Of a stretch of 64,000 nt of DNA, positions 16,485-61,099 are shown piece by piece (within the stretch, counting starts at the first letter, position 1; each line of letters begins with the position of its first letter). Location of the stretch: assembly GCA_008632985.1 (NCBI GenBank), contig QPGO01000088.1:1-64000 (forward strand), read 5' to 3'. The notes below the pieces were generated by a model. It saw only the letters and a program-made list of their open reading frames with translations. It did no database searches and was not told where the DNA came from. Both the position numbers and the translations under genes were made by a program. This stretch comes from Psammoneis japonica (Eukaryota).

Positions 16485-16564
16485 ATGACTCTATGCATTC
16501 TAAAAAATAAAGAAAATGGGAGACAGTATGTAGTGGGAGACGAGGATTGCCCACAAATTCAGAC

Positions 16565-19140: not shown

Positions 19141-19181
19141 CCGAGTGCCGAGTGCCGAGTGCCGAGTGCCGAGTGCCGAGT
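19141..19181. repeat. Heptamer tandem array (CCGAGTG)~6
   Basis: ccgagtg repeated from 19141 to 19181. Confidence 0.95.
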
Positions 19182-19234
19182 CGAGACCGAGACAACAACA
19201 GCCTCAAGCCAACATACGGCAAGCGGTGTTGACC

Positions 19235-40399: not shown

Positions 40400-43300
40400 G
40401 TCCGCGACCAAGACACTCGACTCAGTGCCTGGTGAACCCGAAGGTGCAGATTGATCCAGGCCCCTGCACGCAGAAGGGAAGCAATGGGAGTGGTGGGTGC
40501 TTGCACAGTGGGTGGAGCTGTTTCACAAGTTCTGCGCGGTTGGGAGCGAGGGATGCAATGGGAAGGGAGGAAGCAACTCAAGCACAGGTGGTGGAGAGGT
40601 TGTTGACACTGGCAGCAATTTGGGCGGAGTGAATGCAGGATGGGTTGTCGAAGTCAAGGGGTTCACCAGATGCATCTGGGATGGGAGCAGAGCATGATTT
40701 GTCACAGAGGGTGTGTGCATGGAGCCGCTGCAGAAGAGAAAAAGGCAATGTGTGGTGGTGGTTGAAATCGGGATGCTGGAGTCCTCAGGGCATGGGTGGA
40801 GGACGAGGTGTTCAAAAAAAAAGAGGGTTGAAGGGTTGGGAAGCATCAACAGTGCACTGGACAATGTGGTGAAAAGCAAGGGTGACTTGAGGTTGGGAGG
40901 AGGGAGGCATTTGTGCCAAATGGAGGTGCAGAAAGGTGGCGGTGAAAAAGGGCTGGTGAGTTGAGTCACTGAAAGGAAGCTGCCCATTCAGGCAGCTCTT
41001 GGCATGGGCAGGATGATGCAATGAGTTGGATGTTGGTGGTTGTGCAAGGTTGATGGTGGGTGTTGCAAGTGCGGGTGTGCAGACAGGTGTCTTGAAGGCA
41101 CATCTTGCCGGTGCGTGGACAGCGACGACATGGGTGTAAATTGTGTTGCTGGAAGAAAGAGTCAGGTGTGGATCACAAGCTGCAATGTTCGTGCATGGAG
41201 GACAGATGTGTGCACACCAGCTTGGGGACTTGGGTCAGAGAGGCATCTGTTGGAATGCAAAAAGAGCAGTGTGCAAAGGGGCACGACCAATTGGCAGCCC
41301 CTGGCGGGGTGCGTGTGCCAACGGGCTCCATTTCTGGATGGTTGGAGAGTGCGGTGGGGTCTTGATTTTGTTTGGCAGCATTGCAGGCCAGTTCATTTCC
41401 CACATTGAGGTGTGCAGGTGTGGACCCATTGATCAAAGATGTTGAGGAGTTCACAGTCCCGCTGAGAGTGTTCAAAGTCCTTGTCAGATGGATCGGGTTG
41501 TTTTGTGTCATCAACAATGGCTGCAACTGTGGGGGGTGGGTTGGGATCATGGGTTTGGTTTCAGTGGTGTCGGCTTGGCCCATGGTGGTGTTGGATGAGT
41601 GTGTGGAGCCATCAAAGTCATGTGGGTGAGAGCATTTTTTGGTTGTTGGAGAGGGGAGGGGGGGCAGTCGGCAATGTGTGGAAACTGGCGTGGGTGCAGA
41701 TTGCCAGGAGGCTTCGAGAAAAGAGAGAGCTGTTTCCAAGAGAGTGCTGCAAGGTGGTTTTTCAGCTGCTTGTGCAAAGGATGCAGATGTGTGAGTGGGG
41801 GGGGGGGACAACAAAGGGGTGGGTTCTTGAGCAGTTCTTTGGGAAGGCCAGGGCAGAGATGAAGGGTGGAGCTCACAATGTCAACAATGGAAGGGGTGGG
41901 CAAGAAAAAGAGTTTGTGTTTGAATGGGGTGTTGTCATGGACAAGAAACATGGGGACAACACTGTGGAGGTCTGGAGCAGAGATGAGTTGGACACAATCA
42001 AAGGGTGTTGTGATGTCAAGGCAGCTGGCGAGGATGACGCACATGTGTTGGCTGTGTGTGCAGCAAGGAGGCAGACACCTGATTTGGGGAGGTTGGAAGT
42101 TTGTCTGGTGGGGGAGAAGCTGGGGAATTGCAGTGGCGCCAGATTCCAACATGGTCAAGAAAGGTGTCATGTTTGGAGAAGAGAGAAAGGTTGGGGTCTG
42201 AGTGGTTGGTCAGCAGGAGGGGTTTGATGTGGTTGTGAAGTTTTTTCAGGAGAAATTGGCGTGTGTGTCTGGATTGGCTGCATGTCTTGGGATCAGCACC
42301 GGCAAGGATTCTGCGGGCTTGTTTGGTGAAGGAGTTGCAACCCAGTGCAAGGAAGGAAATGCATCAAGTCTAAGGGTTGGGAGAAGCTGGGAGTTCTTTG
42401 GCATTTGGGGAGAGGAAATCTGAGCAGGAAGAGGTGGCGGAGTGAGGTTTGAAGTGATCAGGAGGGTGGAGGTGCCATTTTTGCATGGCTGATTGAAGGA
42501 CTTGATCACAGAAGAGATGGAAATCGAGTGGCTCATTGGAGGTGGCGGCAGTGAAAGACAGCTTCAAAGCAGGATGCCGCTGATTGTGGCGAGAACAGGA
42601 GCAGTGTTTGGTTTCAGAGAAGGTGATGTTGGCCACTTCACAGAGAATGAAAAGCTCACAAGTGGTGCGGTGCAGAGAGCAACATGAAGGATGGATCAAA
42701 CCCTTTGACATCAACAGCGGGCCCAGGTTTGTTGTGGGGTTGGCAGGATGGAGGAGCTGAAGGAGAAGTTTGATGGCAGTGGGAGATGGTGTGAAGTCAT
42801 CAGAAATGTGGGGAGCGTCAGTCTGCATCTTGGAGTGGGAGTCAGGCTGTGGGTTGGCATCTGAGTTGAGGGGCTTGGTGTTGAGAAAATGGTGGGTTTG
42901 GTGGAAGCAAAAGTGGAGGCAGAGACAGAGGAAGAGTTGAGGGAAGGCAGGTTTGAAAGGGAGGTGTGTGCACATGGGCAGAGATTTGGGTGGAGACTTG
43001 AGCAGAGACTCAGATGGGGACTTGGGCAGAGATTTAGAGCCAGGTGGTGATTTGAGGTCCAGCAAGGTGGCAGGGGTTGCAAGCAGGGGTTGCAAGAAGG
43101 GGCTGGGAGTCTTGGGAATCTTGGGTGCCATCCTGAAGAGATGGCCAGCTGGATTCATTGGAAAGGGAGGACACAGTGGAGAAGGGTGCAGAAAGCAAAG
43201 TTGAAATTGACGTCTTGGTGGATGCGTTGGGTTGGTTTTTTGTAAGTCATTGAAAAGAGAAGGCCATTTGGGAGCACAACTGGGTGGGTGTCAGTTTGGG

Positions 43301-43700
43301 CAGATGTTTGCAGGGGTGGGAAATTGGGGTTGTCAAGAGAGGGTGCAACTTGGAAGAAAAGGCTGTTGAGGGAGGGCCATTTGAGGTGTCACATTTGCAA
43401 TCGTGAGGGCCACAGCAGGTGTGTGGAAGGGGATCATGGGAGGAGGATGGTGACATGGGGCTGTTGCTTGTGTCACAACAGCTGTTGGGGGAATGACCAT
43501 GAGAAGGGTGTCGGGGCAGAGGAATTCGGAAGGGGCTGTTGATGGCATCAAGCAGGAGCGGTGCAGGGCCACACAAGTGTCGTGCATGATTGGATTGAAA
43601 ATGACTGAGTGGGTGGGCATGGTGTGTGTGGGGCTGCATTGCTGTTTGAGGGCAATTGAAGAAAGGAAAGAAAGTGAAGGGTTGGCACTTGAGGGCAGAA
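40400..43700 (-). mobile_element. Degenerate retroelement-like remnant with RNase H-like motifs
   Basis: Strong C-rich minus strand; FDGS near 41600 and PAHLNVGNELACNAAK near 41370-41420 resemble RNase H (DGS...GNELADxxAK). No RT core recognised; may be more than one element. Confidence 0.4.
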
Positions 43701-45384
43701 AGGATCAAAGAAAAGGGGGAGTTGTGAAGCCGTGCTGAGGTTGGAAATGATGAGGAAGATGGTGAAAACCAAAACAATGCAAAGGAACTGCCATGAGAAA
43801 AATGGTCCAAGGTGTGGCAGTGGGCAGGGAGGTCATTTTGGTGAGTGCAGTGAAGCACTGTTTGGCTGGGGAGCAAACCCCGTCGATGTTGTTTCAAGGC
43901 CATTGTTCTCATGTTTGCTGTTGGATCAGCCAGCTCATCAGTTGTTGTTGTGCGGTCCACTCTCTGCTGGTGCCGCACCACAGAGAAGAGGAAAAAAGAG
44001 GATGGGAGAGCAAGAGACAATGCAGTGCTCATGTTCTGCTGAGCATGCACAACACCCAGATGAAAATTTCTCAGGGACATTGCCAACAGATCCAATGACT
44101 CAATTTGGTCATTTCAAGTGTTCGTGCCAAGTCAAGATTGTGAGCATGACCGGAGCTGTGTGACGTGCAAAACCATTTGAGACACTCTTTCTTTGAAAAA
44201 CTTGCAATGTCCAAATGATGTCTTTTGGACATTTTGCTCATTTCCCACTCTGAGGTGGCACTGCGAGGGTGCAAAAGTGGGCCAGATTCTGCGCACGTGG
44301 GGACTGGCATCATGTTTTCTACACCAACTTGAGCCCTCTCCCAGATGATGGAAACTTGAACATTTCACATGACAAAGTGTCCGGGCCACTCAACTGCACT
44401 TCCCTCTGCTTGTTCTTTGAGAAAAACTGCAAGTTTTCATGCATTTTTGAAGAAATGCACTGAGTCCAATTAGAAAGGTGCCAAAATTGGGACGTTTGAG
44501 TTTTGCAGAGCTGCAGCAAACAACAAACTCATTCGTTTTGGTGCCAGCGTGGGATGCCATCTTTGTCAGTGGCTTTTTTGCTTTTAGTTTGGGTGGTGGG
44601 GGTGAGTTTTTTGGTGGCTCACTGGGTGGGGCATCAGGATCAGAGTTGCTCTCTGCCTCATCCTTGCTGGACAAAGACAATTTGCAGTCTCTGCACTTTC
44701 CTCTTGAAGCTGACATTGCTGTGCCCAAGCTTGCAAGCAGTTGAAAGCATTTTTTAACACTGAGCTTCTGCCACACATGAACCTTGTTTGTGGTCTGTCA
44801 CCTGCACTGATGTGCTCCCGCATCTTCTTTGTCACTGGAGCCCCAGAGTTCTGGCTTGCTGTCATGGATCCAATGGGTGGAGGCATGTCTGAGGGCCTTC
44901 AACCCACTGGCTTCCTTGGCATGTTTTCTGGCACTTGGAAGCCCTGCTTTGTTGCTGTGGGAGGGGCTCTTCTTGCAAGCTGATGGTGGCAATGGCAATG
45001 GTGAGAAGGCCTTCTTCTCCTTGCTTCATTTCAATCAAAGCTCCATTGTGCCATTTCAATTTGCTCTGTGTTTGTGCATGGTTTTTTGAAGAAGCAATGC
45101 CGGCCACAGCAACCATGGAAAATTCAATTTTAAAATTAGATCATGAGCAATTCTTGACAATTGTTCCCATTAAAAAGAAGAACATGCAATGAAAATGTGT
45201 GCTCATTTCAAAGTCATTCAGTGACTTGTAATTTCAAATGATTCTTCACAATCAATCCTGCCAAGCACAAGATTTAAAAAAGCACATGCTGGCAGCTGGA
45301 GTTTTCACACATGACACACTTCCCCCACAACAAGAGCGAAGACAACAAAAGAGAAATGAAAGCCTTGACAGAAGCAAGGTGCCA

Positions 45385-45600
45385 ATGATGCCTCCAAGGA
45401 AGAAGAAACTGCTGCAGTGGAAGGACAATCATGCTGGCACATTGCTCAAACAAGACCTGAAAAGTGGCGAAAATCCACTTTTAGAACAGGAGATGATGAG
45501 CACTGAGGACACACACCAATGATGACCCAAGTTTTGATGGATTGATTTTGAGAAATTCAAGGATCAGCTGGAAAAGGCCCAAGAGAAGGCAGATGCCAGA
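45385..45600 (+). pseudogene. Transposon-associated small protein remnant
   Basis: W..NHAGTLLKQDLKSGENPL....M..EDTHQ**PKF*WIDFEKFKDQL reverts to ..IYQRRPEFR..FKDRL by restoring only TA and CG dinucleotides. Resembles a repeat family I recall from diatom genomes. Confidence 0.4.
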
Positions 45601-46553
45601 GGCACACAAACAGTGGTGAAGTTGTTTTTGCTGTTAAGAAATCTTGACACTGAAAAGACTCATCAAAAATTGGCTTGTGTCAGTCACTAAAACACACCTA
45701 GTTGAAGTGACTGATGAAAGCCTGTTTTTGACACAATCAGTTGCAACAGCTGCAGAGCAAGAGCAAAGTCCTGAAACATTGGGTTCTTCAAGTGTTTTGC
45801 ATGACATGCATGGGCAAACCTCTCAACAGAAATCGGCAAATCATTTGAAAGATTTTCACATGCTTTTTGGCGGTGTGTCTTTGAGCAAATCCAAAGATCA
45901 ACACACACAGCCATTCTGATGACATTCAACTCCAATTCCATCTGCCCCCTTGTTCAAAACAAAAACAACAAATTGATGCGCGCACTGCAGCTGTTGATGA
46001 CAGTGAACCACAACCCAATTCTGCCAAAAGAAAGCAAGCTCATCTGCATGAGAAAGCCAGCAAGTCTCACAAGAAGCACAAGCAACCTTCTGAAGAGATC
46101 ATGCTTCATTCCAGGGTTCTTTCTGCTGACTGAACCTAAAGAACCAGAAGAAGCCATCAACACACCAGTGCTTCAAGGAATGATGGCATCATCTGTCCTT
46201 GAGAGAATGAGATCAAGGTCATGGAAGACAACATCTTGCTTCTTGATGAAGCTCTTTGCAGTGATGACCACAAAGGTGTCATCAACATGAACAAAGCTCA
46301 GTGGCATGCCACAGCTTGTGTGTTTGTTGAGCTTTGTTTTGACATGCCTCCTGAGGAGGAATGAGATGGTCAGAATGGAGCGACACCTGCAATGAAAACA
46401 AACCTTGGCATCTCCCCAACTTTGCACATCAAAGACATCTTGTGCAATGTCACCACCACCACAAAAATCACATTGAGTGCAATGGTGGCAGGATCATAAC
46501 AGTGCCATTGGCTGACCTTCAATTTTGTCTCTTGATTTGCCAGAAGCCAAGGT

Positions 46554-47048
46554 CATTGGCAACAATGTTGAAAGCAGACTTTCAATGCCCCAGACAGTTC
46601 AACTTTGTGATGAGCATTGGTGTGAGCAAGGGGAAACTGCGCCACAAGGGCTCCTGTTGACAACTTGACACAGCAGATGGGTGCCAAGGTGCAGAAAGTT
46701 AAGCTGCACAAAACAAGGGAGCAGAAATCCTGATTCTCCCTGGTCACATGAGTGCAATGCAATTGGACTTGCCAGTTGTTGGTCTGGTTGGAAATGGTTG
46801 ACATTGGCAACAATGTTGAAAGTGGCTTTTGGCACCCCAGACAGCTCAACTTTGTGAGACAAGCATCAGCGTGAGCAAGGGGAAACTGTGCCACAAGGGC
46901 TCCCATTGACAACTTGATGCAGTGGATGGGTGCCAAGGTGCAGAAAGTCAAGCCAACAAAACAAGGGAGCAGATGTCCTGATTTTTCTGGTCACATGAGG
47001 GCAGTGCAATTGGACTTGCCAGTTGTTGGTTTGGTTGGAAATGATTGA
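46554..47048. repeat. Tandem duplication, 248-bp unit x2
   Basis: Copies start at 46554 and 46802 (cattggcaacaatgttgaaag...ttggaaatg). Confidence 0.9.
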
Positions 47049-47539
47049 AGCACAAAAGAGAGCCAGCGGGAAATCCCAGACTGCTGGAATCCAGACAAGA
47101 TGCCCAAATTGAAACCAGAACAAATCGCACATTGGGACAAGATGCACAAAAAGTGCAGGTGTTCAGTTTCCACATGATGAAAATGGAAAAATTGATGTTG
47201 GTGATCATTGCATTGTTTTTGTGTTGCACTGTGCTGTGCAGTGTTGTGTTGCAATCCAACTGCACATTGATGTGTTGCTGTTGTCAAATGGGCAACACAG
47301 TGATGAACAAATCAAAGTTCCAAATGTCAGCACAAAAAAAGAGGCGCAACTGTGCTGTGGGAGCACCATCAAGAAGAGAGGAGATGGGCAAGATGGGCAT
47401 GTCGAATCTGCCTTGGAGCCATTTGCATGCTCAGGTTGCATCCCAATGTCCATCCCTGACACAAAGTCAAAAATTTGAAGTGAGACATGGTGAGTCAAGA
47501 GCTCAAAGCCTGATCCATTCTGGGCACACTTAACACACG

Positions 47540-48460
47540 AGGCTGGAGTGCTTTGTTGCGACAACAAACTTGCCAAGATCAACAAACTCGGTGACTCCAT
47601 AGAAAAAAGATTAAAAATCATGGCATTTCTTGTGTCAAGGATCTTGTGAATGCAGGTGAGCCTGCTCCTGCTTCTGTTGTTGCAAATGAAGACCAACTCT
47701 CCCTTCAATCTTTGTGCAAGTTCTGCAAAAAAACTGTCAACTGCATTGACAAAGATGCGCCACCTGAGTTTGACCATCACAAAGCCAAGAACCCACACCA
47801 GGCCAAATGCAGTGACAAGTGGGAGGACAAGACAATGAAGTCATTGGCTCTCTCCCCCTGCATCTGCACAACTGTCATGATTGGGCACATTGTGAAAGAG
47901 TGTGAGGAACATTGCAAAGGCAGACAGCACAAGGATGACTGGAACTTCTGTCATGATGCATTGTCATTGATGATGGCTGGGAAAACAATCAAGTGGAGAT
48001 GAAGGAGAAGGGCTGTCACAAGAGGTGCCTCTTGCCTGTGGATGGCCTCCAAATGGATGCGAGTGATGCAAGAAATGCACCTTGCACCCACTTGGAGATT
48101 TGCCAAAAATGATGACTTGGGACACATTGTTGAACAACGATCTCCACACCACAGTGGCTCGTCACATCATCTTCACATCAGACCAATGTGTGGGTCTTGG
48201 GATCTGTGAGGCAATCTTGAAAATAACTCAGTTGCCATTGACATGCCTCCAGCAAGTTGAAGAGCAGTGCTGTGTTTGATCTTGCGGCTCTTGAGCACAA
48301 TCATTGAATTTTCCCCAAGAAGACCACCAACAAACATGGCAAGAAATGGTGGGAAGGGTTGGAGGCAGAAGCTCTTCTGAAAGCGGACCTTGCAGATGGC
48401 ATCCATGAAATGATGAAACTGAAAGAGCTGTGGAATTCCGAGATGAGTGCAAAGAGTTCA
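47540..48460 (+). mobile_element. DDE transposase remnant (IS630/Tc1-like)
   Basis: WNFCHDALSLM..TIKW and PLGDLPKMMTWDTLLNNDLH resemble the HD and SPDxxPxD regions of Tc1/IS630-like transposases. Many stops. Confidence 0.5.
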
Positions 48461-48829
48461 AGCGGACATTTTTTGGGGACACTTTAATCAAGAAGTGCGT
48501 TGGTGAGTTTGTCAACTTTCAGAAGGAGAAGCAGAAGAAAAAGGATGTAAAACGAGCTGGGTTGAATGCCATTGACAACTGACAAGAAGGCTGCTTCATG
48601 TCCACCATGGGGAATGATGATGCCACAAGGAACACAACAAGGAGAAAACTGGAAGAGAGGATGAATTGGGAGATTTTCGGTGCAGTCCAATGAGAGGTCC
48701 AACCGCAACTGCAACAAATGGACAGCATCATGGTCATGGACCAAGAATGACCCTTTTCCTTCTCCAATTCGGGTGCCATGCCGAACCTCTTCAATGCTTC
48801 CTTTGACTGCAATCCAAGCATGTGGTGAA

Positions 48830-49720
48830 ACTCAGTTCACCATGCCTTCCTCCCACACCACTTTGGTGGAGCAAACTTGAAACAACCGCCACACACACAG
48901 TTGCAAGTCACATTGATGCTCTTGTTGCAGGAGAGAGAGAAGGAATCCACAGCAGAGTTCCCTTGAATTGTTGGCAACGTCCATTCCACCAACGGCTGCT
49001 GCTCCACAAGCCCTCACACGAACGAGATCAAGATTGCCATTGCTCATGCCAATGACGCTGAAAGCACTGCCATCAAACTTTTTCACGTTGGACACGTGGA
49101 GTCTTGAACAATGAGCTTGACAGGGTCGTTCCCGACCCTCGTCCCATTTCCTGCAACAGAATTGCCAAAACCGACATTGTTGACAATGGAGAGCATTCAA
49201 TGACTCCCTTGGTGGGATCACCATTGCCGCAAGTGAGAGTTCCACCTCCTCTGTTCCCCTCAATGGTCAAACCTGAAAAGAAAAACCCGTTGACCTGTCC
49301 ACAAAGATGCCGTGATGTCGCCGTTCTTGACAACAGAGTTGAAAATGCTGAGTTCTCCAAAATCGGATTCTGCAACAATGCTGGCCTGCTTTGTGTTCTC
49401 AATGGTGACAACCTTGAGCTTGGCTGCGCAGCCCCAACACCCAAAATCCATCCCTTCCTGCTCAACATCCTTGATGGTGGCATGTGAGATTTGGACCCAA
49501 TTGTCATAACCCTCTGGATCAATCCCTTCTCTTCTGGCACCATTGATGGTGACATGCTCCATCATGCACTTTGAAATTGCACCTTGAAGTTTCATCCCAT
49601 CATCTGCAGCTCCATCAATGGTGACATGCTCCATGACATGTGTTGTCTGAAAGGAACGAAACCTTGTCCCATCACCACCAGCTCCATGGATTTCAACATG
49701 GGAAAAGAAAAGAGGCAAAA
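48830..49720 (-). pseudogene. Right-handed parallel beta-helix repeat protein remnant
   Basis: Repeats HVEIHGAGGDG, HVTIDGAADDGM, HVTINGARREGI, HATIKDVEQEGM; frameshifted. Confidence 0.55.
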
Positions 49721-50243
49721 TGATGTCATCTGCGTTAAAACCAGTGATGCCATCATCTTTGACATTTTGGATGATTGCATGGGAGACAAAGACACCCTCT
49801 TCAGAGAAACTTGCAATGGCGATCCCATCATCAACGCAGTTCTCGATGATGCAGTTTTCAACTGCACAAGTGACAAATCAAGTGAAGACAACAATGAGGC
49901 TGAATCAGTTGCAGTCATTGTCATCATGAAAAGGACCGGACATGTTCATCAGAGTGCACGAAATGTTAAAAATGTGCAGATTCACATGATGACAATTTGT
50001 TGAAACATTGCAAAATGTTGTTGTCATGTGATGACAGGCCAACCTCTGGTTGCAAGTTTGGTGTGCCAATGTTGCAACAACTTGTTGAGAATTGTGCGTG
50101 CTGTTTTTCACCACATCCACATCACCATTTCTGCCTCCACCTTGTTGCCATGTGCCAATGCGTGATTGCATTGCCACACAAACCTTGGTTTGTTAATTTT
50201 CGTAAACATCATTTTAAACGAGAAAAACATTTCATCAGTTGGG

Positions 50244-51560
50244 TCAATTCCTTGTTGCATCTGCAGTGCAATGACCGAGTGCCATGTCAACTGTGTGCAC
50301 ATTTTCTTGCTGCAACTCTCTTAAACCAAGCTGACAATCATCATTGGACTCGTCTTCATTGGACTCGTCTTCATCGGATTCGTCTCCTCCGTCGTTCGTT
50401 TTTCCTTTTGCGCCTTCCTCCTGCTCATCGTCATTGCCATTGTCGTCCCTGCTGCTCTCCACCATCAGGCTGTTCATTGCCTTCACCTTCTCCGCATCAC
50501 CGGTTGGTGCTGTCTTCTTCTTCTTTTTTGCTTCTCTGGACTTCTTGTGCTCGCTTTTCTTGATCTCCGCATGCCACTTTTCAAACTCCTTGCCCTCCTT
50601 GGAGTCTCTGTCTTTCGTCACCTCTTTGCACAAATCGTTGAACCGAATGATTCCGTCATCTCCCCAAGACTCTTGTTGTTTCTTTGGCTTTGTGCACCGA
50701 GGGGCAGGCCTTGTTTCTTCGGGCTCCATTTCCTCACCCAATTCTTCCACCGCCTCCTCCTTGTTCCTGCATGCCCACACCTGCCAACAATTCTCCATGG
50801 CTGACAGTGCCAAAGCTTCGTCACCTGCCGCAAACAACTGTGAGACCTGTGCATTCCCAGTTTTGATGGTGCAACTCCATGCCTGCTTTTGCTTGGTTTG
50901 AGGTGGGATGTGATCACAGAACCACTTGCATGCCTGCTTGTTCCTTTGTTTGCCGCCAGTGACAGTGTCCAGGCTGAACGGTTCCCACGTCGGCACAAAC
51001 GGGACATCATTCTCTTCATTCTTGTCACGGCTTGACTTTTTCCTGTTTTGCTTTTTCCTCCTGACTGCCGCCTTGAGTTTCTTTTCTTTTCCTTTCCCTC
51101 TTCCTCAGTGACAATGCCTGTGTAGACAAAGCATCACCGTCATCTTCTTGTGAGATGCGTGCAACTCTCGAATCACACACATTGGTCACTTGACTTACGG
51201 GCCATTGCCTCCGCCCCAATGGCCGAACACACCGTGTTTCTGCAATTGTTGGTTTGCCTTTTTACCGCCTTTCATGCCCATTCCTCCCAAGTTCCTGACC
51301 AATTTGAAGTGTCCATGTTGCCACCAGCAATCTGTTTCTTGACAAACATTGAGATGCTCCCATTGCTTGCCAATTCTGACGGACTGAGAAACTTCACCTG
51401 TGGAAAGAGATCATTTCTAGCCACCTTCTCTGCTTCTGATTTCAATGCACCATGCGCTGCCTGCACACCTGTTCTCTTCAACACTGCCTGAAGTCTCGGG
51501 CTCATTGGCTTGACAGTCTCATTTTTCTTTCTCTTCTTTGCCGGTGGTGCTGGAGACGAC
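50244..51560 (-). pseudogene. Transposon accessory protein remnant (acidic tail; WxxDGIxRFNxL..V..DR motif)
   Basis: NLS-like PPAKKRKK, LFPQVKFL, DEALALSAMENCW, PRCTK..WGDDGIIRFNDLCKEVTKDR and an E/D-rich tail; split by TGA stops. Family recalled as associated with Plavaka-like elements (inference). Confidence 0.45.
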
Positions 51561-51974
51561 ATCTTGATCTTTGCACGGCAACAATGAGAGCAGTGTTGCT
51601 GTTTGACAGTGCAACCGTCATCTGGGTCATGTTGAGACAGCCAGCCACTCTGTTTTTCTCTGTGACATTGCATGGGTTGTTGTCAGCAACATTGAAATTT
51701 GAAAATGCATTTGCACATGACAATGAACAGTCCAACTTGTTTTTTGACATGGCTGTCATTGCGTTCCAACGGAGATGATGTCCTTCATTTTGACAGCAAA
51801 TAAAAAAGAACAATGTTCACTGTAAATGCCAGATAAAAAATCAAAATGCAGACACGTCATGCCTGCAAGAATCATCCAAATCTGGAAGACAATGTAATGT
51901 TTGCCATTTTCCCACCATTTTTTGTGTGTTGTTCTTCTTTTCCCTTCTCATCCACAAAGACCAGGACGACGAGC

Positions 51975-52275
51975 ATGAGTCTTGATGAAGGCCCTGTCAA
52001 CATTGACCAGAGAACCATTGGGCAACGGCATCAGCATGCAGACTTGGTCAGTTGCTGGCAGCTTGATCACAAACGAAACAACTGGCTTTCAATGCCTGAG
52101 AAGACCCAGCACTCACCCAAGTTGCGGGTTGTCCCTGTCAAAGCAATTGGGGACAATGTTTTGGTTTATGAAGAATGTCCAGGAGCAGTGGAAGCGCAAG
52201 AAAAGGCCCCATTTGTTTGGGCTGCACAGGACAGAAGGAAGTGTTGGTCAGATTTGTTTCTAAAATGGGGCGCAC
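51975..52275 (+). mobile_element. C-terminal fragment of a Plavaka-like transposase
   Basis: PKLRVVPVKAIGDNVLVYEECPG..VWAAQDRRKCWSDLF resembles remembered C-termini of Plavaka-type ORFs; catalytic part absent. Confidence 0.4.
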
Positions 52276-53404
52276 ATGTCAATCTGTCACTCACTCACAG
52301 TGATGTCACCTGACTCTTTCTTGCAAACATGATGAATTTGATCCTTTCAGAATCAGCAAAGTCATTGCGGTGCACGTGAAGCAGTGCGGCACGAGCACCT
52401 TCCGTTGCTTTTGTTCTGATGTCTTCTTCGGAAACTCCAAGACAAGCTTCTTCCTGATCGGAAGGCTTTCCCAACCACTGTTCTCGTTGTTCTTGGGTCA
52501 TGAGGTTGCTTGCAAAGAACACACTTGCACGGCTCTTTGCAGCATCCTTGTCCATTGTGCACATGTTGAACACAGCCAACAATTTCTTCCATTGTTTGAC
52601 AACCTGGAAGAAGGTTGCAAGAGTGGAGGGAATCACTGTGTCCCTCCCTTCTTCGTTTTTGGAGAGCAAGGCCCGAAGATCAGTTGGATTTTGGAAAAAT
52701 TGAGTCATCCAAAATGACTGTCGCACCACTCTCCATCTGGCATCCAGCAGCAGTCCAACATGATTTGGTCGAACCCATGATTGTCAAAATCAACAAGTTT
52801 CTCAAACTGCTGCTTGACTCTCTTGACGAAATCTCTTGCTTTCACATTGCAATTTAAGTGCAGATCATGATGTCCACCTTGGAGAACAACTGTTGGAACG
52901 ACGTTTGTGACTGTTTTGTTAGATTCCTCAAATGCCATTGCGCGGGCCTCATCTCACCTGTGTTGGTCGGACGACACCAAGGCCACCCCCTTCTCAGAGC
53001 ACAATTCTTGAGAAGACAGTTGCCTTGCATTGAGCGGACGGGTCATCCCCAACCACAGCACATTGTGTGTTTCCCCGTCAGTTTCGTTGCTTGTGAAACA
53101 ATCTCCCAAGTTGCCATGGTCCTCTTCACCCTCGGAGCAATGTGCAACTTGGTTGTGCTCATCGTCAATGGGCTCTTCGCTTTTGTCCTCTTCACCCATG
53201 CAAGTGGTTGGAAGTTCACTTGTTTTCTCGTCAATTGACTCCTCCTCGCAATCGTCACTTTTGTTCATTGTGAATGACAACAAATCACCGGCAGCCTTCT
53301 TCCTGTTAGAACGAGAAATCAATGTGACAATGTTGGCACAATCAGACAAAAAACAAATGTGATTGCCATGAAAAAGCAACCTCTCTTTGCCATTCCAGTT
53401 CGGC

Positions 53405-55708
53405 TCAAACTTCATCAATCGACACGAACGGGACTGGCTCCCATTCACACCTTCCAAACCACTTGATCATTGATTGCCCATCAGAGAACAAGAGCAACAG
53501 ATGCTGTCCACAACAAAAGACATTGCAGATTCCCATCTTTTCACGAGCCACACTCAGGTCACACAGCAAAGACTCTGGGCCATTCTTTCCACAGTCTTCC
53601 AAATCAAAATCACCCTCCATCCGTTCCAAGAGCAAATCGCGCTCCTCCACCGGGACCTTCATTTCCTCCATTTGCTTCGCCGCTCCCAACTTGGCTGCCG
53701 GATGGACAAGATTACGAAGGTCAGGGTGAGGATGGATCCCCGTGCCACACAGCATCAACATCTGCGTGGAGTTCATGCATCTGAACTCTCCACAATCAGC
53801 ACCTGCATGATCCCATGTTTGGACCACGGTTTGAAACATGTCCTCGATCACCTTGTGGTCAAACGTTGGCATGCCAACATTGTCATTGATCCAGTCGATG
53901 ACAACAACCAGTCCGCCAACAAGCAAATCCATCAAACCGTTGAGTTTCGTCCCACACTCTGCCGCGTGAACCTCCTCGAAATCGAGTCCCGGGCTCTGCA
54001 TGCATCGGTTGTTGCGATCCCCCGCAATGCTGCCGAATGGCCTCGCAGCTTCTCTGAAGCAATGAAGGACACAATCGCCAGCCATGAAAGGACGCTTCAC
54101 AGCATCTGTGTTGCACAACAAGCAGCAAAAATGGGAGAATCCGGTTTGACACCCAGCCACAACGGCGCAACGAAAGCAATCGTGTGCACCAACCTCATCG
54201 AGGTTGTCGATGATTGCCGAACAACCGCGCGAGAAATTAAAGTCCTTCACGATGGCAAAAGGATGACGTTTCCTTGGCATGACAATGACGGGGTGCTTGA
54301 CTGTGTTGGACGGAAGATTTGGCTTGCCAATTTCCTCTTCCACCCACACAGAGTGAGGGTCAAGGAAAAAATCTTTGATGTTTCTGTGGGTTGGCTTGCC
54401 CAACGGAGGACGACAAGGGCCGCGGCATCTCATCATTTCTGCAGCATGTGACAGATCAAGTTTTGCGAAATGACCATGCACACGCAATCAGAACTCGGCA
54501 CACCCATGCACTGAACTGACACAGTTTCCAGCATTGCCTTTGGATGCAGTGACAACCTTCAACGACCAAGAGCGACCAACAGCGTCTCGCAGTGACGAGC
54601 AAAGAGCACCAGTCTTGGTGCACCCATCCATGCCACAATCCTCTTTGTCAATGTGCAGCTCGGTTTTCGAACCAACGGATTTTTTGCGGGACGACGAGAT
54701 GCACTTAACTTGAATTTCCATGCCTTCCCTTCTAACATGCTTGGCTCCAACCATCTTACGGAGCTCAGCCGCGAAAAGACCATCGCGGCATGGGTCATGG
54801 AAGGAACGCATTTCTTTCAATGCAACAAGATTAATTTCGTCCTCGCAGAGTTGCACGGCGTCCAAGATTGAGGCTGTCATCAACTGCACATCCTTTGGAA
54901 GCTTCTCCCACTTGTCCCTGCCAAAGACAGCACCAGGCTTGTGAGTGGGTCCCACTTCAGCTGACTCACCGTCTGCGACTTCGTAATTCTGGCCGCAACA
55001 ACCAAAACAGATCCAACAGCGCAACTTGCATTCTGGTCCATCCCTTTTTTCGTTCGGCTCGCCATGTTCCAACACTGCACGGAGTGTTGACGACACACTG
55101 AATTGCAATCCAAAAAAGCATTTCTGATGCATCTTGTCCGTGTGTCGCAAATGAGTGACAACGTCGGAAAAATGAGAGGTTGACTGGGTTGGGTGAGCAA
55201 TCGCAACCATCAATTCTTGCGTCGGATCATTGGGAGCCATGCTGTTTTCAAATCCATGCACAAACTTGCGGAGGTGATTCACCAAGTGGAAATCAGAGAT
55301 GCTGTGGAGTGACTGGTGCTTGACACAGTTCCCCCCAAAGGAACCGGAAATGGGGGTTTCCTCAAAGATGACAAGGTGAGAATGTTGTGACTTCACCTCA
55401 CCCGGAATCGCAAATGGAGATGGTTCAGGAAACACTTTCACAAGCTCTTCTTTTGTGAAGTTGTCTGGCGGAGGAGGAGGCGGCTGACAAGTTGCACCGA
55501 GGGTCGGCCACTTTGTTTGGGAATGTTCAAATTGTTCCTTGAGAGTCGGCACATCTTGGAGAATCAGCGATTTGTTCTGAGAAACATCAGAAGGTTCACC
55601 ATCTTTGGGGTTTTTGAGACTGGGGCTTGAGGAGCAAAGGGAGGCGGCTAAAGAGGTGGCAAGAAGAACAGAAGAATTGGAGACAAGAAGAGGAGCACAA
55701 ACAATCAA
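53405..55708 (-). pseudogene. Large element-borne ORF (~766 codons, one in-frame TGA) with HxD and ExxLC motifs
   Basis: ORFs 54488-55708 and 53405-54487 abut in frame, separated only by TGA at 54488-54490. Only one Tyr in 766 codons. Confidence 0.6.
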
Positions 55709-55745
55709 TCAAACAATGTGATGGATTCATGCCATTTGGATTTTT

Positions 55746-56828
55746 TCATTTCCGAGCATTTTTCACAACGGATGGAATTGCACCGCCGATTTCTTTCTTC
55801 TTGTGCTGAGCGGCAAAGTCACGAAGCCTGGCTTTCCACATGGCCTCAAAACGATCCCTTGCAGCCTTGCTTTCACCGGAATCGTCAGCGGCAGAAACCA
55901 CACGATCAATTTTCACACATCTTAAAAGAGTCTCATCGACATGTGTTGCACGCATTTGTTCTCGCTTGACATCGAGCATGGCCAGTCGCATGGGCTTTTC
56001 CCAAGAATGTTTGTGTTGGTGGAACAACGACTTTACGAATTCAGGGAAGGACACAGGGCATTCGTCTTTGGTCGTCTCACAGTGACCAAGAGCCAGGAAA
56101 TTCTCCAAAAAGTTGATGTAAGTCGATGTCTCGTCACATTCGCTGAACAGGGAGTGCAGCCAACAATCGCAATCACCATTCCTTTCAGGTGCGCATGGCA
56201 GAATCTTGTCACAAAGAATCAAAAAACCAATGTGAGGGCATTGCGCGTAACGCAAAACCTTCCCTTCAAAACTTCTCAGCTCAATGTGCTTGACAAGTGG
56301 CTCTCCCTTTGGGTCGCACAATCCGGGATCATGGAGAAGCTTGTGCAACATGGATGTCTTTGCCATCATGTTGGTTGCAATGTCTGTTGATTTTGCCGTG
56401 TCACCGACGACTTTCATGTCCTCCACTTTGGGAGCACAGCGATGCTCCAACGCATGAGGATGTTTGGCGCCTTGACTGGAACAACTCCATCCTTTTGCAG
56501 AAAGAAAGTGCAGCAAGCTCTTGCACCCAAGTTCCTTTGCAACAATGCAGTTCACAGCCATCAGCTCTACAAAAAAATGAGGTCTGCCCTTTGACTTTTG
56601 CCACACATGGGCAAGCGCGATCCAATTCGGAGAGGGATCATAAGTGGAATCGCGGTGAAACTGAACCTTGGATTTCACTGTCTTGATTGTCGCTTTGACG
56701 CAGCTCCGCTCATTGCTGTCCATCACTCCAAAACCATTGGCAAAGAGAGATTCAAGTGCGGCCTCCTCGAGGCAGGAATCATTGTTGTCTTGCGACAGAG
56801 AGGCGACCGACAGGTCACGCGGCGCCAT
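55746..56828 (-). pseudogene. Element-borne hypothetical protein
   Basis: Open frame from MAPRDLS.. (~360 aa) with protein-like composition, same strand as the downstream ORFs; no family recognised. Confidence 0.4.
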
Positions 56829-56886
56829 GGTTGCTGTTCCAACACCAAAAAATCTGGTTTCTGTAGAAATGTGCCAGAGTGGTGTG

Positions 56887-57022
56887 TGGGAGAAGTCACA
56901 TGCACGCCTGGTGCGATTTGGAGTTTTAAACACAAAAACCTGCCAGACGCGCATGTGACTTCTCCCAGGGAAATCCCACAACCTGCCAGACGCGCGTGTG
57001 ACTTCTCCCAGGGAAATCCCAC
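56887..57022. repeat. 43-bp direct repeat x2 plus a 25-bp inverted partial copy
   Basis: aacctgccagacgcgc(a/g)tgtgacttctcccagggaaatcccac at 56937-56979 and 56980-57022; tgggagaagtcacatgcacgcctgg at 56887-56911 is its reverse complement with 2 mismatches. Confidence 0.9.
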
Positions 57023-58204
57023 GTGAGACCACACCGGGAAAGGGCAATGCGGAGTGTAGAATTGATGGAAGAAAATGTTGTGCGGAACAGCATCAGGAGA
57101 AAGGGTGCATGTGCTGGAAAACAACATGGATTTCTACATGCGCGCCAAGGTGCGTGAAAAACACATGGGTGCCTTCAAGTGATGCATGCAAACAACAATG
57201 AAGAAACATTCGGAAATGGAGACAGCACAGAGAGAAGTCAGAAACATGGATCCAAAACAAAGTGACACAACAGAAAAAAAAACAACAACAACAAGAGATG
57301 AAGGCGACGGCGACGGGATCAATGAAAAAGAAGGATTCAGATGGAAAGACGCCAGAGACGGTGAAAAGAGGCGGCGCCAAGACGAGGAAGGAAGAGAAAA
57401 ATGGGACGGGCAAAATGAAGAAAGACAAAAAGAAGCCGACAACATGACGTCAAGAGGGGAGCAGCGATGCGATTCAGCGTTTCGAGGGACCTCTTCCTCT
57501 TGATGATGTTCACCCAAATGCAAGAAATGCAGTGTGGCTTTTTTGGAACGGTGACGAGGAAACATCCAACGCGGCAGCGGCACATTTGAAATTCTTGCAA
57601 GAGAGCGGACAAGACACATGGAATGAAGAGGACGATGCGGACGACTGGGCAAATTGGAGCACAGTTGTTGATCAAATGATCAGTGCACACTTTGCATGAT
57701 GAAAATTTCATTGCATGCAATTGCAATGTTTGGCTTGTCGTCAAAGATCGTCAGTTGTTGTGAAAAAGGCAGAGCACAAAAATTAAAAAACATCTGTGTT
57801 CAAACATGAAGAACAGCAGGAGATTGATGATCAGCTAAATGACAAAAACCGTCATGTGCAGACAAGCAGATTTTACAATGTGGCAACATGTTTTTGTCAT
57901 GTGTGCAGACATTGCAACATCGTGCACTCTGATGTTGCAGCCACCGCACCTTTGTTTCCACCTTGAAGCCCAAGGCAATCAGCACCTGACCCAGGCACAT
58001 CAGAACCATTCCAGTTTCCCAACATCTTGAAACCCTTGCAATCGACGTTCGCTCCCGGCATGAACTCGAAGGCAGCCCCATCATCCACCTTGAGGTCAAC
58101 GCAGTCAATGTTTGATTTCAAAATGCAGTTTCCAGCCAGCAGGGTTGCAGTCTTTGGCCATTGTCACAGTTGGCTCTGCATTGCAAACGGGCAATGAATG
58201 CTTT

Positions 58205-58294
58205 GAACTCTTCAAAGTCTTTGAAATCTTTTTTCCACTGGATTTGCCAGAACTCTTCAAAGTCTTTGAAATCTTTTTTCCTCTAGATTTGCCA
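58205..58294. repeat. Tandem duplication, 45-bp unit x2
   Basis: gaactcttcaaagtctttgaaatcttttttcc..gatttgcca at 58205 and 58250. Confidence 0.95.
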
Positions 58295-61099
58295 GACTTG
58301 AGCTTGAGATTTCTGTGATGTTGCCATCCAGCTTTTGCGGTGCCGTGCTCTTCTTTGGGTGATTCTTCGTGACGCTCATCGCCCTTGCAACTCTCAACCT
58401 TGGTTGACACCCATTCTCCAAACTCAGCCTGTCAAACAACAAAACGATCGACCGGCATTTTTTCAAAAGACAACAGCAAGAATGTAATGGATGAGACGCT
58501 TTGCTTTGGTTGTTTGGCCATTCACGCATTGGATGAGTCCTTTCATTGGATTTTCCGATTTGATGACAGCAGACTGGACTCTGCTGCAACAAGGTTGGCC
58601 TGATCCAGTGCTTCAGAGATGCTGGGCTTTGTCTTGTCCTTCCTTTTTTCACAGCAAGTGCTTGTGAACATCAGCAAGAATGTGAGTTTTCAGTCCATTG
58701 ACAATGACAGCATCAAGTTGCAACTTTGCAGCCACAGAGAACTTGAGCTTGTTGTCCAATTCACACTCGGTGTCCTCCCCATGCATTTGAAGCAAGCATC
58801 ATCACACACTTCCACGGTCTTGCTTGCAAAGCACCACACAAAAAGCTGGAACTCTCTTTTGCGAATGTCTCCTTGTTCTTGCCTGAGATGGCAATGATTG
58901 GTGGGTGCAATGGAAACAATGCTCAACATGTCTGGTTGTCGACTGAACGAGAACCAGCTCTGTCTGTGAAACAAAGAACCGGACAGTCAGCAAAGTGGCA
59001 CATGGATCCGCAAGCGTTGGAGATGCAACTTCAACAGTTGCACACAATCAGCAGCATGCCACGTGGGGATCCAAGATGATCAATTTTGCTCTGCTTGAAA
59101 GTTCAAGATGTGGAGCCAGTCACAACCTTGAATTTGAAAAGGCTCTTGTGCATCATCCCTGAAGACCCAGCAAGTCTCATGGCTCACCAGAAGAAAAGGA
59201 CATGAAAAAAACCTGTGGTGCACATGGCCATGGCGCAACGTCTGCCACGCCGTGTCATGCACGTCTTGCTTGATCAACTGTGCTGGTGCAGCAGACTGAG
59301 CACATTGCAACACTCTCTGCCGGGGGGCAACTTTGTTGTCCATCTCATTGTGGCAGTGCAAAAGCAGTCGTGGATGATGCCAAAATAAAGAACAAAAAGG
59401 TTTGGTGGCAAATTAAGATGTGGAGGCCACACTCCAGCAGACAAGACAAAGCACAAAGTGCAGCTCTTGCGTGTGTCAGTGAAACGATCTAAAATGTGCG
59501 AGCATTTTTGAAAGACACCAGGAGAGAAGATGGAGGACCAGAACAAAAAGAAGATCTGCTCATCTTTGATCATAAAAAATTCAAGAAACAGGCAGCCCCT
59601 GCATTGAGCCCCCATTGGCTGTAACAAGAATGGTGTGGAGCTTGTGGCAACAGAGTGTGGGTCAGGGATGGCACACCTCACAAACTGTTCTTGATGGGTT
59701 TGTTCTCTTTGCAAATCTTTCACACCACTGCAGACAACAACAGCAGGCAAAAACTGCCAGGCAAAAGACAGCAGCAGTGAGCCCCCCTCCCCAGCAGGTG
59801 TTTGTTCAAGCTGCCCAGGTGTGGAGTGTGATGAAGGCAACCCAGTCAGCGGGATCAACCAAGGTGTGCACCTGGCAACTGCGCCTCTGCTTCAGAAATG
59901 CAGCTCTCACATGCTGGCATTTGCCTCACATTTTTTTCTGCACCCTCACATGCCATGGTGGGGAGCCAGCCTGGCATGCATGACACCTCTGAGCTGAGAG
60001 TGAAATGCGCTGTGGTGCTGAGCAAAAAATTGTTTGAATTCTCACCCGCGTCCATTGTTTTCTTGCTGTCTTGAGTTGCACTTTGGGTGCCAGAGACTCC
60101 CTTGAGCTGAATCACCCCCCAAGGATGAGAGACAGCATGTGGCACATGACACAACCAGCAATCTATCCACACATGGGATGGTGTCTCAGACAGAGTGCTC
60201 AGCAAAGAGTCTCTTCTTGCAAGTGCAAGAAGAGACTCTCTGCGGTGTGTGGCAATGCTGCACTTTTTTAAAAGTCTTTCACAAGCTGGCTGCCCAGGCC
60301 AAAATCTGGTGAGAAAATGAGAGTGCAGACGGGGCTGCAGGAGAGGTCGCGCTCAGCTCACAGAGTGGAGTTTTGCGCTGGCTGTTGCTGGCAGTGGTGG
60401 TGGTGGTGCCTGGGCCATTGTGCTGGATCGAGGTGATGCCAACCACACAACAACTGGTCCTGCACTCAGAAACCAAAGTGATGGCTCCAAGACATGTGTG
60501 GTGCACAGCCGTCATTGGGCATGCCAAGCTCTGAAAAAAGCCAGGGTGCCATCAACGCAGCAGGGTCATCTCCAAGCAAATGCTTGCGCAGACAAACAGA
60601 AAGTCAAACAGATTGCTGGTCAGACACTCCTTGACTTTTTTAATCTTGCTTGCTTGTTTTGTTTCCCTTGCCTACAAAATCTCTGCCTGCCCAGGAGAAA
60701 TCAGAGAAAAATCGCCATGATTTGGACGGGACAATGAAACCCGAGGTGTAAGTCGTGAGGTTGGTGGTGCACCGGTGCTGTAGGAATAGCGGCCAGACGG
60801 CGAGACTCCAGAAGGAATCTATGGGCACAACATCGTACGAGCGATGGTGGTGTTCGCATAACATAAATTTATATTAATCCCGAATATAGAAGATAAATCA
60901 TAAATTTCAGAAAAATTCAGAAAGAACCAACACCACACAACAACGCCGCTCGCCAATGGCAGCATGTCGACGACGTCGTCCGGAACTGCCGACGACTGTT
61001 TCAGGAGAGCCACTTATCGATGTCCATATTAATAGACTTGGGAATTCTCTCACCCTTTTCGTTGGCATTTGGATCGGGCGTTTCACCACAGACATGGAC

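Follow-up and report, generated by a model that had tools for sequence, protein, structure and literature searches.

Near-complete loss of TpA and partial loss of CpG in two blocks of a contig from the diatom Psammoneis japonica

The stretch of DNA analysed here, referred to as the window, comprises 64,000 nucleotides of the diatom Psammoneis japonica (NCBI GenBank assembly GCA_008632985.1, contig QPGO01000088.1, positions 1 to 64,000 of the forward strand). Uninterrupted open reading frames (ORFs) at 16.5-39.7 kb and beyond 61 kb encode an ankyrin/2-oxoglutarate (2OG) oxygenase protein, a CASP protein, ABC transporters, an amine oxidase, Tfb4, and an annexin. This genic DNA is interrupted by two blocks, at approximately 2005-16280 and 39900-60640, from which the dinucleotide TpA has almost disappeared. 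The second block contains a 7.7-kb repeat element with the remnant of a large gene. The coordinates of these and other features are collected in Table 1.

Table 1. Coordinates and properties of features in the window (o/e, observed/expected ratio; YpR, pyrimidine-purine step).
Feature	Position	Strand	Properties
Old TpA-free block 1	2005-16280 (14.3 kb)	none	TpA o/e 0.05, CpG 0.15, CpA 1.80, TpG 1.89
Edge zone of block 1	16002-16286 (285 bp)	none	TpA 0, CpG 16
Edge zone of block 2	39780-40550 (~770 bp)	none	TpA 4, CpG ~33; near-normal CpG
Old TpA-free DNA left of element	39900-49946	none	TpA o/e 0.05, CpG ~0.25; low copy number in sequencing run
Tandem duplication in old DNA	46554-47048	plus	Two ~247-bp units, 85.6% identical, differing mainly at YpR steps
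Right-handed beta-helix remnant	49263-49877	minus	PF13229, E 1.1e-8; sole Pfam match in old DNA (1/150 ORFs)
Young repeat element nested in old TpA-free DNA	50036-57708 (7.7 kb)	minus	TpA 35 against 312 expected; CpG 289 against 446 expected
Gene remnant (~1,200 codons)	53408-57092	minus	TGA at 54488-54490, frame change ~55411-55749; unannotated family
300-bp zero-TpA example	53881-54180	minus	Within C-terminal domain of gene remnant
Old TpA-free DNA right of element	57709-60640	none	TpA o/e 0.06, CpG 0.36

The composition of the window falls into two states. In the genic stretch at 16500-39700 the o/e is 0.61 for TpA and 1.00 for CpG, and at 1-kb resolution genic DNA has TpA o/e of 0.4-0.9 with CpG o/e near 1. 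At the same resolution both blocks have TpA o/e of 0.00-0.11, low CpG, and CpA and TpG o/e of 1.5-2.5. By block, CpA and TpG are both at 1.5-1.9, and TpA lies at 0.05-0.07 across the sub-blocks. The distribution of TpA o/e is bimodal. When the window was divided into 500-bp segments (n=128), 70 were below 0.2 and 57 were at 0.4 or above, with a single segment, which is genic, at 0.2-0.4. The edges of the blocks are abrupt, within 100-200 bp, and the G+C content is 0.48 in every compartment, blocks and genic DNA alike.

A sequence-only reading of this DNA, generated by a model, had drawn attention to 53881-54180, where it counted 0 TpA but 20 CpG in 300 bp. The recount gave exactly these numbers, and the chance of finding no TpA in 300 bp at the genic density of the window (0.0409 per bp) is 4.7e-6. 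The wider region, 50200-57500, contains 34 TpA (o/e 0.07) and 278 CpG (o/e 0.65). The parts that the same reading regarded as older and poor in both dinucleotides are indeed so, with TpA and CpG o/e of 0.05 and 0.15 at 2005-16280 and of 0.05 and 0.25 at 39900-50199. It had further proposed that TpA is erased first and CpG afterwards, along an L-shaped path. A proportional fall of the two ratios was not found: the 70 low-TpA segments all have TpA at the floor level but span 0.00-0.89 in CpG o/e (Spearman rho 0.23, p 0.06). CpG is strongly and inversely tied to the level of CpA/TpG in these segments (rho -0.69). Every affected stretch is at the TpA floor; thus, the window displays a single arm of the predicted L.

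The fate of the missing dinucleotides can be followed by a mass balance, in which genic o/e was taken as the starting point and the missing TpA and CpG were compared with the surplus of CpA+TpG. Block 1 lacks 548 TpA and 692 CpG, a total of 1240, against a surplus of 1279. The corresponding values are 375 + 424 = 799 missing against 722 for the old DNA left of the element, 277 + 157 = 434 against 383 for the young element, and 107 + 115 = 222 against 225 for the old DNA right of the element. As a comparison of end states, the two sides agree to about 10% in the four sub-blocks, and therefore both steps have been converted to CpA/TpG by transitions. The G+C content is unmoved because the loss of TpA (A:T to G:C) and the loss of CpG (G:C to A:T) run in opposite directions. 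Two candidates were dropped. Biased gene conversion was discarded as G+C is not raised, and TpA loss as a by-product of C-to-T decay was discarded because C-to-T change creates TpA instead of removing it.

The TpA that survives is not a random sample. In all four sub-blocks, 83-87% of it stands in TTA or TAA contexts, compared with 38% in genic DNA. The tetramer TTAA is the most frequent survivor in the blocks, yet among the TpA tetramers of genic DNA it is the rarest (o/e 0.28). Each of the four sub-blocks has no ATAC/GTAT, no GTAC, and 0-2 ATAT. Such a context bias fits a flank-sensitive, enzyme-like activity.

The copy number of the element was explored through the contigs of a public sequencing run (assembled with exact 31-mers), which were placed on 40800-60799 at 80% likeness or more (n=6229). 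The summed contig depth is 4,000-24,000 over the bins at 49471-58141 and 49-180 in most other bins, where single-copy contig depth is 44-66. In the old DNA to the left of the element, 11 of the 13 bins have a summed depth of 57-180, and the remaining two have 356 and 656. The old blocks are now at approximately 1-3 copies. Likeness of the contigs to the window copy was 99% or more for 1352, 95-99% for 1795, 90-95% for 2248, and below 90% for 834. Differences among copies are mostly transitions, 873 compared with 165 transversions (A>G 214, G>A 243, C>T 199, T>C 217, and 14-27 of each kind of transversion). Two further public runs (X2 and X3) yielded only 2 and 0 placed contigs.

The limits of the element, and hence its length of about 7.7 kb, are given by loose ends at 49947 and 50031 and by a head-to-tail joint from 57708 to 50036. 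In the contigs this joint crosses about 37 other letters. Such a joint suggests that elsewhere in the genome the 7.7-kb element is present as head-to-tail arrays or as a circle. Within the element CpG o/e is not uniform, being 0.44-0.57 in the non-coding part (50-53 kb) and 0.68-0.82 in the gene (53-58 kb).

Three large ORFs, of 448, 406, and 360 codons, are present on the minus strand of the element. DNA that is free of TpA has no TAA or TAG, and therefore long ORFs are expected by chance. In first-order Markov simulations, the longest ORF had a mean of 218-236 codons and a 95th percentile of 295-313, and the maximum reached in the simulations of the element was 324. The three ORFs exceed the longest simulated ORF in 100 of 100 simulations, whereas in the old blocks the longest ORFs, with 283 codons in block 1 and 306 in the other, lie inside the simulated range. 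The sequence-only reading had called the ORFs of this region the longest and least broken, and this is not an artefact of missing stops. Its suggestion that the CpG-rich part is younger also held. The element is a discrete, high-copy unit whose gene retains 75-82% of its conserved residues and whose sole in-frame stop is a private change from CpG to CpA. On these grounds, 50036-57708 is demonstrably a younger, recent high-copy insertion, and the surrounding DNA is older.

The gene of the element was used for homology searches with the frame at 53408-55708 (minus, 767 residues), read through its one TGA. There are 127 homologous cluster representatives, 60 of them at E<=1e-10, and the best has an E-value of 1.2e-79 at 34% identity. 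Residues 71-400 of this best homologue, P0001, align to 56774-55740 and residues 503-1133 align in another frame, so the remnant extends over about 57.0-53.4 kb and is interrupted by a single stop and a single frame change. Pfam has no family for the gene, as judged from the three large element ORFs, 12 homologues, and five ORFs of related loci. A PDB profile search returned only chance matches to designed helical proteins, and PHROGs gave no useful match for seven proteins.

Tyrosine codons contain TpA, and the gene records what became of them. Tyr makes up 2.3-5.0% of 29 of the 30 best homologues, with a median of 3.0% over all 127, whereas the window copy has 0.1% Tyr together with 5.2% Cys and 4.7% His. 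At 13 columns with a Tyr consensus in a MAFFT alignment of 18 homologues, the window copy has Cys in six, His in four, Phe in three, and Tyr in none; conserved Cys, His, Trp, Gly, and Gln columns of this alignment are mostly retained. Columns derived from pairwise alignments (at least 60% consensus) give the same picture, as Tyr is kept in 0 of 6 (His 3, Cys 2, Phe 1) and the other residues in 121 of 148. In a hidden Markov model (HMM) alignment, Tyr is kept in 0 of 7 (Cys 3, His 3, Phe 1) compared with 89 of 119 others (Fisher p 1.2e-4). A change of Tyr to Cys or His is A:T to G:C, the opposite of CpG decay, and the claim that TpA loss is not a by-product of methyl-cytosine decay is thereby borne out. 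The number of Cys (TAY to TGY) is similar to that of His (TAY to CAY), so both DNA strands were hit. Judged from these replacements, the balance argues that the process acted on DNA in double-stranded form, or on one strand after the other, and speaks against the editing of sense transcripts.

Relatives of the element do not share the loss. Three related metagenome loci, L001, L002, and L003 (homologues 39-44% identical), have TpA o/e of 0.61, 0.58, and 0.50, and Tyr stands at 3.0% in the homologues against 0.1% in the window; a lack of TpA already in intact relatives, which would have spoken against the proposed order, was thus not found. CpG o/e of the same loci is 0.96, 0.98, and 0.51. The last of these, L003:9-894, combines CpG o/e of 0.51 and TpG of 1.65 with TpA of 0.50, which is CpG decay without TpA erasure and so the opposite of the element in the window. 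A few database homologues do resemble the window copy. Of four Tyr columns, P0123 keeps none (Cys 2, His 2) and P0092 keeps one; therefore further converted copies of the family exist in public data. P0050, P0040, and P0117 are Tyr-poor as well. A metagenome scan with the protein of the window itself gave 36 pattern matches and 0 relatives, and no relative was found among viral contigs scanned with the homologue alignment.

Structural comparison gives some indication of what the gene may encode. An AlphaFold2 model of P0001, made for all 1135 residues and not for the domains alone, has a mean predicted local distance difference test (pLDDT) score of 68, and of about 88 over residues 490-1135. 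Residues 520-790 were compared with 48,161 chains by VIA-align, for which Z-scores of 7-9 are a grey zone. The matches include TET2-DNA (Z 9.2, root-mean-square deviation 3.9 A, 197 aligned), NgTET1 (Z 8.8, 3.5 A, 164 aligned), CcTet (Z 7.4, or 8.0-8.2 from Foldseek's list), FTO (Z 7.0), and CMD1 (Z 6.5). Residues 790-1110 resemble a phage 5-PmdU glycinyltransferase (Z 7.4) and archaeal 8-oxoguanine glycosylases that are AGOG-like (Z 5.7-6.6). Foldseek alone on the same model had a best E-value of 0.14. The motif H741-x-D743 and several Arg residues are invariant in 15 homologues, and a second invariant His for an iron triad was not seen among them. From the model, the fold is probably a TET/JBP-like double-stranded beta-helix followed by an AGOG-like domain, and a function can at most be predicted from it.

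The decay of CpG in the element is partial and appears to continue. About 35% of the CpG, or one third, has been lost, and TpA loss is complete. Fifteen best-supported sites were considered at which all of the placed contigs differ from the window; six are CpG against CpA/TpG and none involves TpA. At 54490 the other contigs read G, giving CGA (Arg) where the window has TGA; CpG decay private to the window copy thus created its only in-frame stop. The 17 conserved Arg columns include nine that are kept and four that have become His (2), Trp (1), or Cys (1), as results when CGN codons decay. A single gene thus combines full (100%) conversion of its TpA-bearing codons with a CpG loss that stands at about one third and is ongoing. 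Under first-order decay of both steps from genic starting values, TpA would have been lost at least about 5 times as fast as CpG, and this is a minimum since TpA has already reached its floor. TpA loss is taken to be an A:T-to-G:C process at the level of DNA, saturated wherever it is present and distinct from CpG decay.

The proposed order of TpA first and CpG later is thus supported within the window, by the contrast between complete TpA loss and CpG loss of about 35%. The part of the claim concerning speed is less secure, as only the saturated state is seen and "faster" may describe a burst. Similarly, of the two ratios that were put forward for dating insertions, only CpG is informative here in practice since TpA is everywhere at the floor.

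The edges of the blocks present INDEPENDENCE in space: at two of the four, the TpA-free state extends past the CpG-poor state (the edge zones of Table 1). At the other two, the TpA and CpG signals switch within 100 bp of each other; at the right edge of block 2, both are back at 60641-60713, about 70 bp apart. The edges that are TpA-free with normal CpG could be places where the TpA process spread past a CpG-depleted, presumably methylated, domain, or they could be small younger pieces.

Repeated sequences in the window allow copies to be compared directly. Between the units of the tandem duplication at 46554-47048 there are seven TG/CA doublets, two cases of CG against TG/CA, one case of TA against CA, nine other transitions, five transversions, and five indels. 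The 75-bp duplicate at 6355-6506 has one TG/CG, one TG/TA, and one indel between its copies. The linker of about 37 nt at the head-to-tail joint has two variants that are three CA/TG doublets and one TA/TG apart, and the CpG is intact in both. Doublets of this kind are the expected outcome when one ancestral YpR step is resolved independently in each copy, and they support separate hits on the copies. A comparison of the window with itself, including one in purine/pyrimidine space, found no large duplicate common to both blocks.

Pfam was applied to 150 block ORFs of at least 90 amino acids with one match, to the beta-helix protein, and to nine further block ORFs with none. In block 1, 0 of 68 such ORFs matched, and a coding remnant was not recognised there. 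No transposase, reverse transcriptase, integrase, or viral hallmark was found by Pfam in the 159 of 171 block ORFs scanned, nor in the 12 homologues, the five ORFs of related loci, or a set made up of the three large ORFs of the element and six others; the remaining 12 block ORFs mostly overlap or are antisense to the gene of the element. The beta-helix remnant has a 72-nt periodicity. The old TpA-free DNA at 40500-44200 shows a strand asymmetry, with G at 37.8% compared with C at 14.3% (A 24.8% and T 23.2%). TpG exceeds CpA there (473 and 291), and transitions alone do not explain the asymmetry.

Outside the blocks, the 2-kb flank to the left of block 1 has a repeat-like structure without hypermutation (TpA o/e 0.87, CpG 1.22). 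It contains nested inverted-repeat pairs at 9-48/799-838 (95% complementary) and 881-1005/1778-1902 (92%). The CASP protein of the genic DNA has 237 relatives; those that are named are all from diatoms, at 52-63% identity, including the genera Cylindrotheca, Nitzschia, Seminavis, Amphora, Epithemia, and Thalassiosira, and the best unnamed match is at 79%.

Taken together, the blocks are probably two mobile or repeat-derived insertions in a diatom chromosome that have been rewritten by regionally confined hypermutation. At TpA, A:T would be changed to G:C on either strand, giving TpG or CpA and leaving about 5-7% of the expected TpA. Most probably, the adenine of 5'-TA would be converted to hypoxanthine by a host deaminase aimed at silenced or repeated DNA, with both the enzyme and its targeting postulated from the pattern. 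A second, slower, and independent process, probably deamination of cytosine in methylated CpG, would act on the same DNA and also feed the CpA/TpG pool. The 7.7-kb element would be a late insertion that has lost nearly all of its TpA and about one third of its CpG, and its neighbours would be older and have lost both. The reading as a whole, in which the host directs TpA-specific A:T-to-G:C hypermutation at the DNA level to silenced or repeated DNA with slower decay of methylated CpG, is given a probability of about 0.65. Its parts differ in strength. It is very probable that the blocks were made by a directed mutational process from TpA to TpG/CpA and not by artefact or selection. Given such a process, adenine deamination is slightly favoured as its chemistry.

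A process of this kind has been described once, in a 2026 preprint on the chlorarachniophyte Bigelowiella natans. In mutation-accumulation lines of this alga, 231 of 302 nuclear single-nucleotide mutations fell in integrated giant-virus and virophage regions, and 230 of these 231 were A-to-G or T-to-C, reported on TpA (Mettrop et al., bioRxiv 10.64898/2026.01.13.699255). The rates in the preprint are about 6e-7 in viral regions compared with 3.5e-10 elsewhere, or about 1000-fold, and 124 clusters that are depleted in TpA and enriched in CpA+TpG were reported genome-wide; an ADAT2-like deaminase was proposed (Mettrop et al.). The text of the preprint contains no occurrence of CpG, diatom, or stramenopile, and because CpG is unmentioned there, the ordering of TpA and CpG loss is absent from it as well. 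The likeness extends to the change of TpA to TpG/CpA on either strand in discrete regions of otherwise normal chromosomes, to the coupling of TpA depletion to a gain of CpA+TpG, to a direction opposite to the usual GC-to-AT bias, and to targets that are non-host or mobile and mostly unannotatable, an origin that in the old blocks is only inferred. The differences are that the host here is a diatom (Stramenopiles) and not a rhizarian, that the end state here is saturated at o/e of 0.05-0.07 whereas the active nucleocytoplasmic large DNA virus (NCLDV) region there is at 0.45, and that one target here is a high-copy 7.7-kb element whereas the NCLDV region is single-copy. To our knowledge, ADAT2 is universal in eukaryotes, so that its mere presence would not discriminate. 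The window thus appears to be a diatom case of the TpA hypermutation known from a chlorarachniophyte; the kind of process is known, and the lineage and the ordering relative to CpG are new.

Several points weigh against this reading. No transposon or viral gene is recognised in the old blocks, and therefore composition and a modest copy number are the sole grounds for inferring that they are foreign or mobile. The TG/CA doublets are not specific to TpA because an ancestral CpG also yields them. Since 1352 contigs are at least 99% alike, a converted copy may have been amplified, in which case the resolution of TpA would be partly inherited; alternatively, short contigs may just miss the variable sites. 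The TTA and TAA that survive could equally be TpA regenerated from the abundant words TTG and CAA. No stretch with intermediate TpA was found, and therefore the kinetics are bounded and not measured. The word "faster" could refer to a burst and not to a steady rate above that of CpG loss. Everything is derived from end states, without any de novo mutation seen here, and the CpG level with which the element started is uncertain, given relatives at 0.96, 0.98, and 0.51.

Other explanations can be weighed against the same evidence. Of those that accept a change in the DNA itself, one concerns the CpG gradient, which would not reflect age if the element is unmethylated or was initially CpG-rich, or if the old blocks were initially CpG-poor; the proposed order would then fail. 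The relatives range from 0.51 to 0.98 in CpG o/e, the lower CpG in the non-coding part of the element indicates that the variation is partly compositional, and the two TpA-free edge zones with normal CpG could mean a lack of methylation and not youth. The signs of youth are nevertheless independent of CpG level, namely the high copy number, the near-identical contigs, the ORFs above chance, the 75-82% of residues retained, and the private CpG changes, which makes this explanation improbable though not negligible. Even if it were correct, TpA loss would still be independent of CpG loss, and it is "faster" that would be weakened. A rather less likely alternative concerns the chemistry, in which thymine at TpA would be oxidised to 5-hydroxymethyl- or 5-formyl-uracil by a TET/JBP-type dioxygenase, possibly from the family of the element, and mispairing with G would give T-to-C. 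5-Formyluracil mispairs with G, and TpA is self-complementary, hence T- and A-directed activities reach the same end state. The best structural neighbours of the predicted beta-helix of the gene are all nucleic-acid base oxidases, a domain resembling AGOG or the 5-PmdU transferase lies next to it in the model, and the H-x-D motif is invariant in 15 homologues. Against this, the Z-scores are in the grey zone, the Foldseek E-value is 0.14, the Pfam and PDB profile searches are blank, and no second His was seen among the invariant residues. The window copy is also dead, and the gene of the element is absent from the old blocks. The authors of the B. natans preprint, for their part, invoked an ADAT2-like deaminase (Mettrop et al.). 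Selection or intrinsic composition, by which elements would avoid TpA because of a TA-specific nuclease, TA-targeting insertions, or RNA stability, finds some encouragement in the mild TpA avoidance seen everywhere (genic o/e 0.61). It is scarcely credible here, as replacement of the invariant Tyr of the family is incompatible with selection for function, TpA is normal in relatives, old non-coding DNA is equally affected, and copies resolve the same step as either TG or CA.

Two further explanations place the origin of the change outside the genomic DNA, and both are very improbable. In one, RNA of a retroelement would be edited from A to I by an ADAR-like enzyme and the change then fixed by reverse transcription. 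A preference for U on the 5' side of the edited A is of the ADAR type (Mettrop et al.), and transitions prevail among the copies. Editing of RNA would not predict that Tyr to His, a change on the template strand, is about as frequent as Tyr to Cys, on the sense strand (4 and 6 in one alignment, 3 and 3 in another). Every block is enriched in CpA as well as in TpG, non-coding DNA and the edges of 285-770 bp are affected too, and the block ORFs that were scanned include no reverse transcriptase or integrase. The other explanation is an artefact in which a dense base modification at TpA is miscalled as TG or CA by a long-read base-caller, the true DNA keeping its TpA. At a palindromic step, miscalls that depend on the strand would produce TG or CA at random, small indels between the window and the run contigs are long-read-like (for example, 5 gaps in 1093 bp), and the run may be from the same sample as the assembly. 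Contigs of the run were compared with the single-copy old block, and they differ by 11 other letters and 5 gaps in 1093 bp, 5 and 3 in 748, 19 and 2 in 1398, and 9 and 1 in 659. This agreement of about 99% was obtained with exact-31-mer contigs at a depth of about 55, exact-word depth needs accurate reads, and TpA at genic density would have added about 4% mismatches; the reads are therefore without TpA at genic density. The Tyr-poor, Cys/His-rich homologues P0123 and P0092 come from other public data, and in B. natans the same signature was obtained from Illumina data (Mettrop et al.).

The favoured reading, TpA-directed hypermutation followed by slower CpG decay, can be set beside other systems that rewrite selfish DNA. 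In repeat-induced point mutation (RIP) of ascomycete fungi, CpA/TpG is changed to TpA, G+C is lowered, and repeats are hit on both strands. The window resembles RIP in a dinucleotide-specific transition hypermutation of repeated or mobile DNA that is regional, affects both strands, and destroys coding capacity. It differs in that the direction is reversed (TpA o/e 0.05, CpA/TpG 1.5-1.9), G+C is steady at 0.48, stops are removed, and the lineage is a different one. RIP acts on duplicated sequence; the young element is high-copy, and the old blocks are at about 1-3 copies. The substrates of the enzymes ADAR and APOBEC/AID are RNA or single-stranded DNA, and the tracks that they leave are biased to one strand. 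Clustered transitions against selfish nucleic acids are common to this animal editing and to the window, where a deaminase is postulated, but in the window both strands are about equally affected and DNA that does not look transcribed is included.

The CpG side of the pattern has its own parallel in the decay of methylated transposons, as seen in CpG o/e of 0.15-0.65, a TpG/CpA surplus, and private differences of the CpG type. That decay explains only about half of the CpA/TpG surplus and cannot remove TpA. CpG-context methylation of a retrotransposon has been reported in the diatom Phaeodactylum (PMC2806351). In the diatom transposon literature checked, including PMC2806351, there is no mention of TpA, dinucleotides, or hypermutation, and no report of TpA erasure in diatoms was found in the limited library of literature that was searched. 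Fungal DNA transposons that carry TET/JBP dioxygenase genes have also been described (PMC12730594). The element shares with them its mobile, multi-copy nature and a largest gene that is TET/JBP-like according to the model. The likeness is structural only (Z 7.4-9.2), the host is a diatom, and an extra AGOG-like C-terminal domain is predicted; the Pfam searches of the element found neither a TET/JBP match nor a recognisable transposase gene.

It is tempting, if rather doubtful, to go further and suppose that diatoms defend their genomes by a mirror image of RIP, in which new or duplicated DNA undergoes a TpA burst that is completed before much methyl-CpG has decayed. The TET/JBP-like gene of the element might then be a counter-defence against methylation or a source of T- or A-directed chemistry. 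The system might be widespread in marine phytoplankton, and it would be ancient within the SAR group (Stramenopiles, Alveolata, and Rhizaria) because the same signature arises today in the rhizarian Bigelowiella.

If the reading given here is correct, TpA hypermutation would have practical consequences for work with such genomes. Annotation of repeats and viruses fails in them because Tyr codons and TAA/TAG are lost, and spurious long ORFs appear. TpA o/e would serve as a cheap marker of silenced foreign DNA. Transgenes that are integrated in diatoms may suffer the same erosion, and a natural TpA-specific A-to-G activity on DNA would be of interest to builders of base editors. The order of TpA and CpG loss would provide a two-stage clock that could be calibrated genome-wide, with TpA for very recent arrivals and CpG for older ones. 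The occurrence of the process in a second SAR lineage would point to a general eukaryotic strategy of genome defence, present in major primary producers and not the curiosity of a single species.

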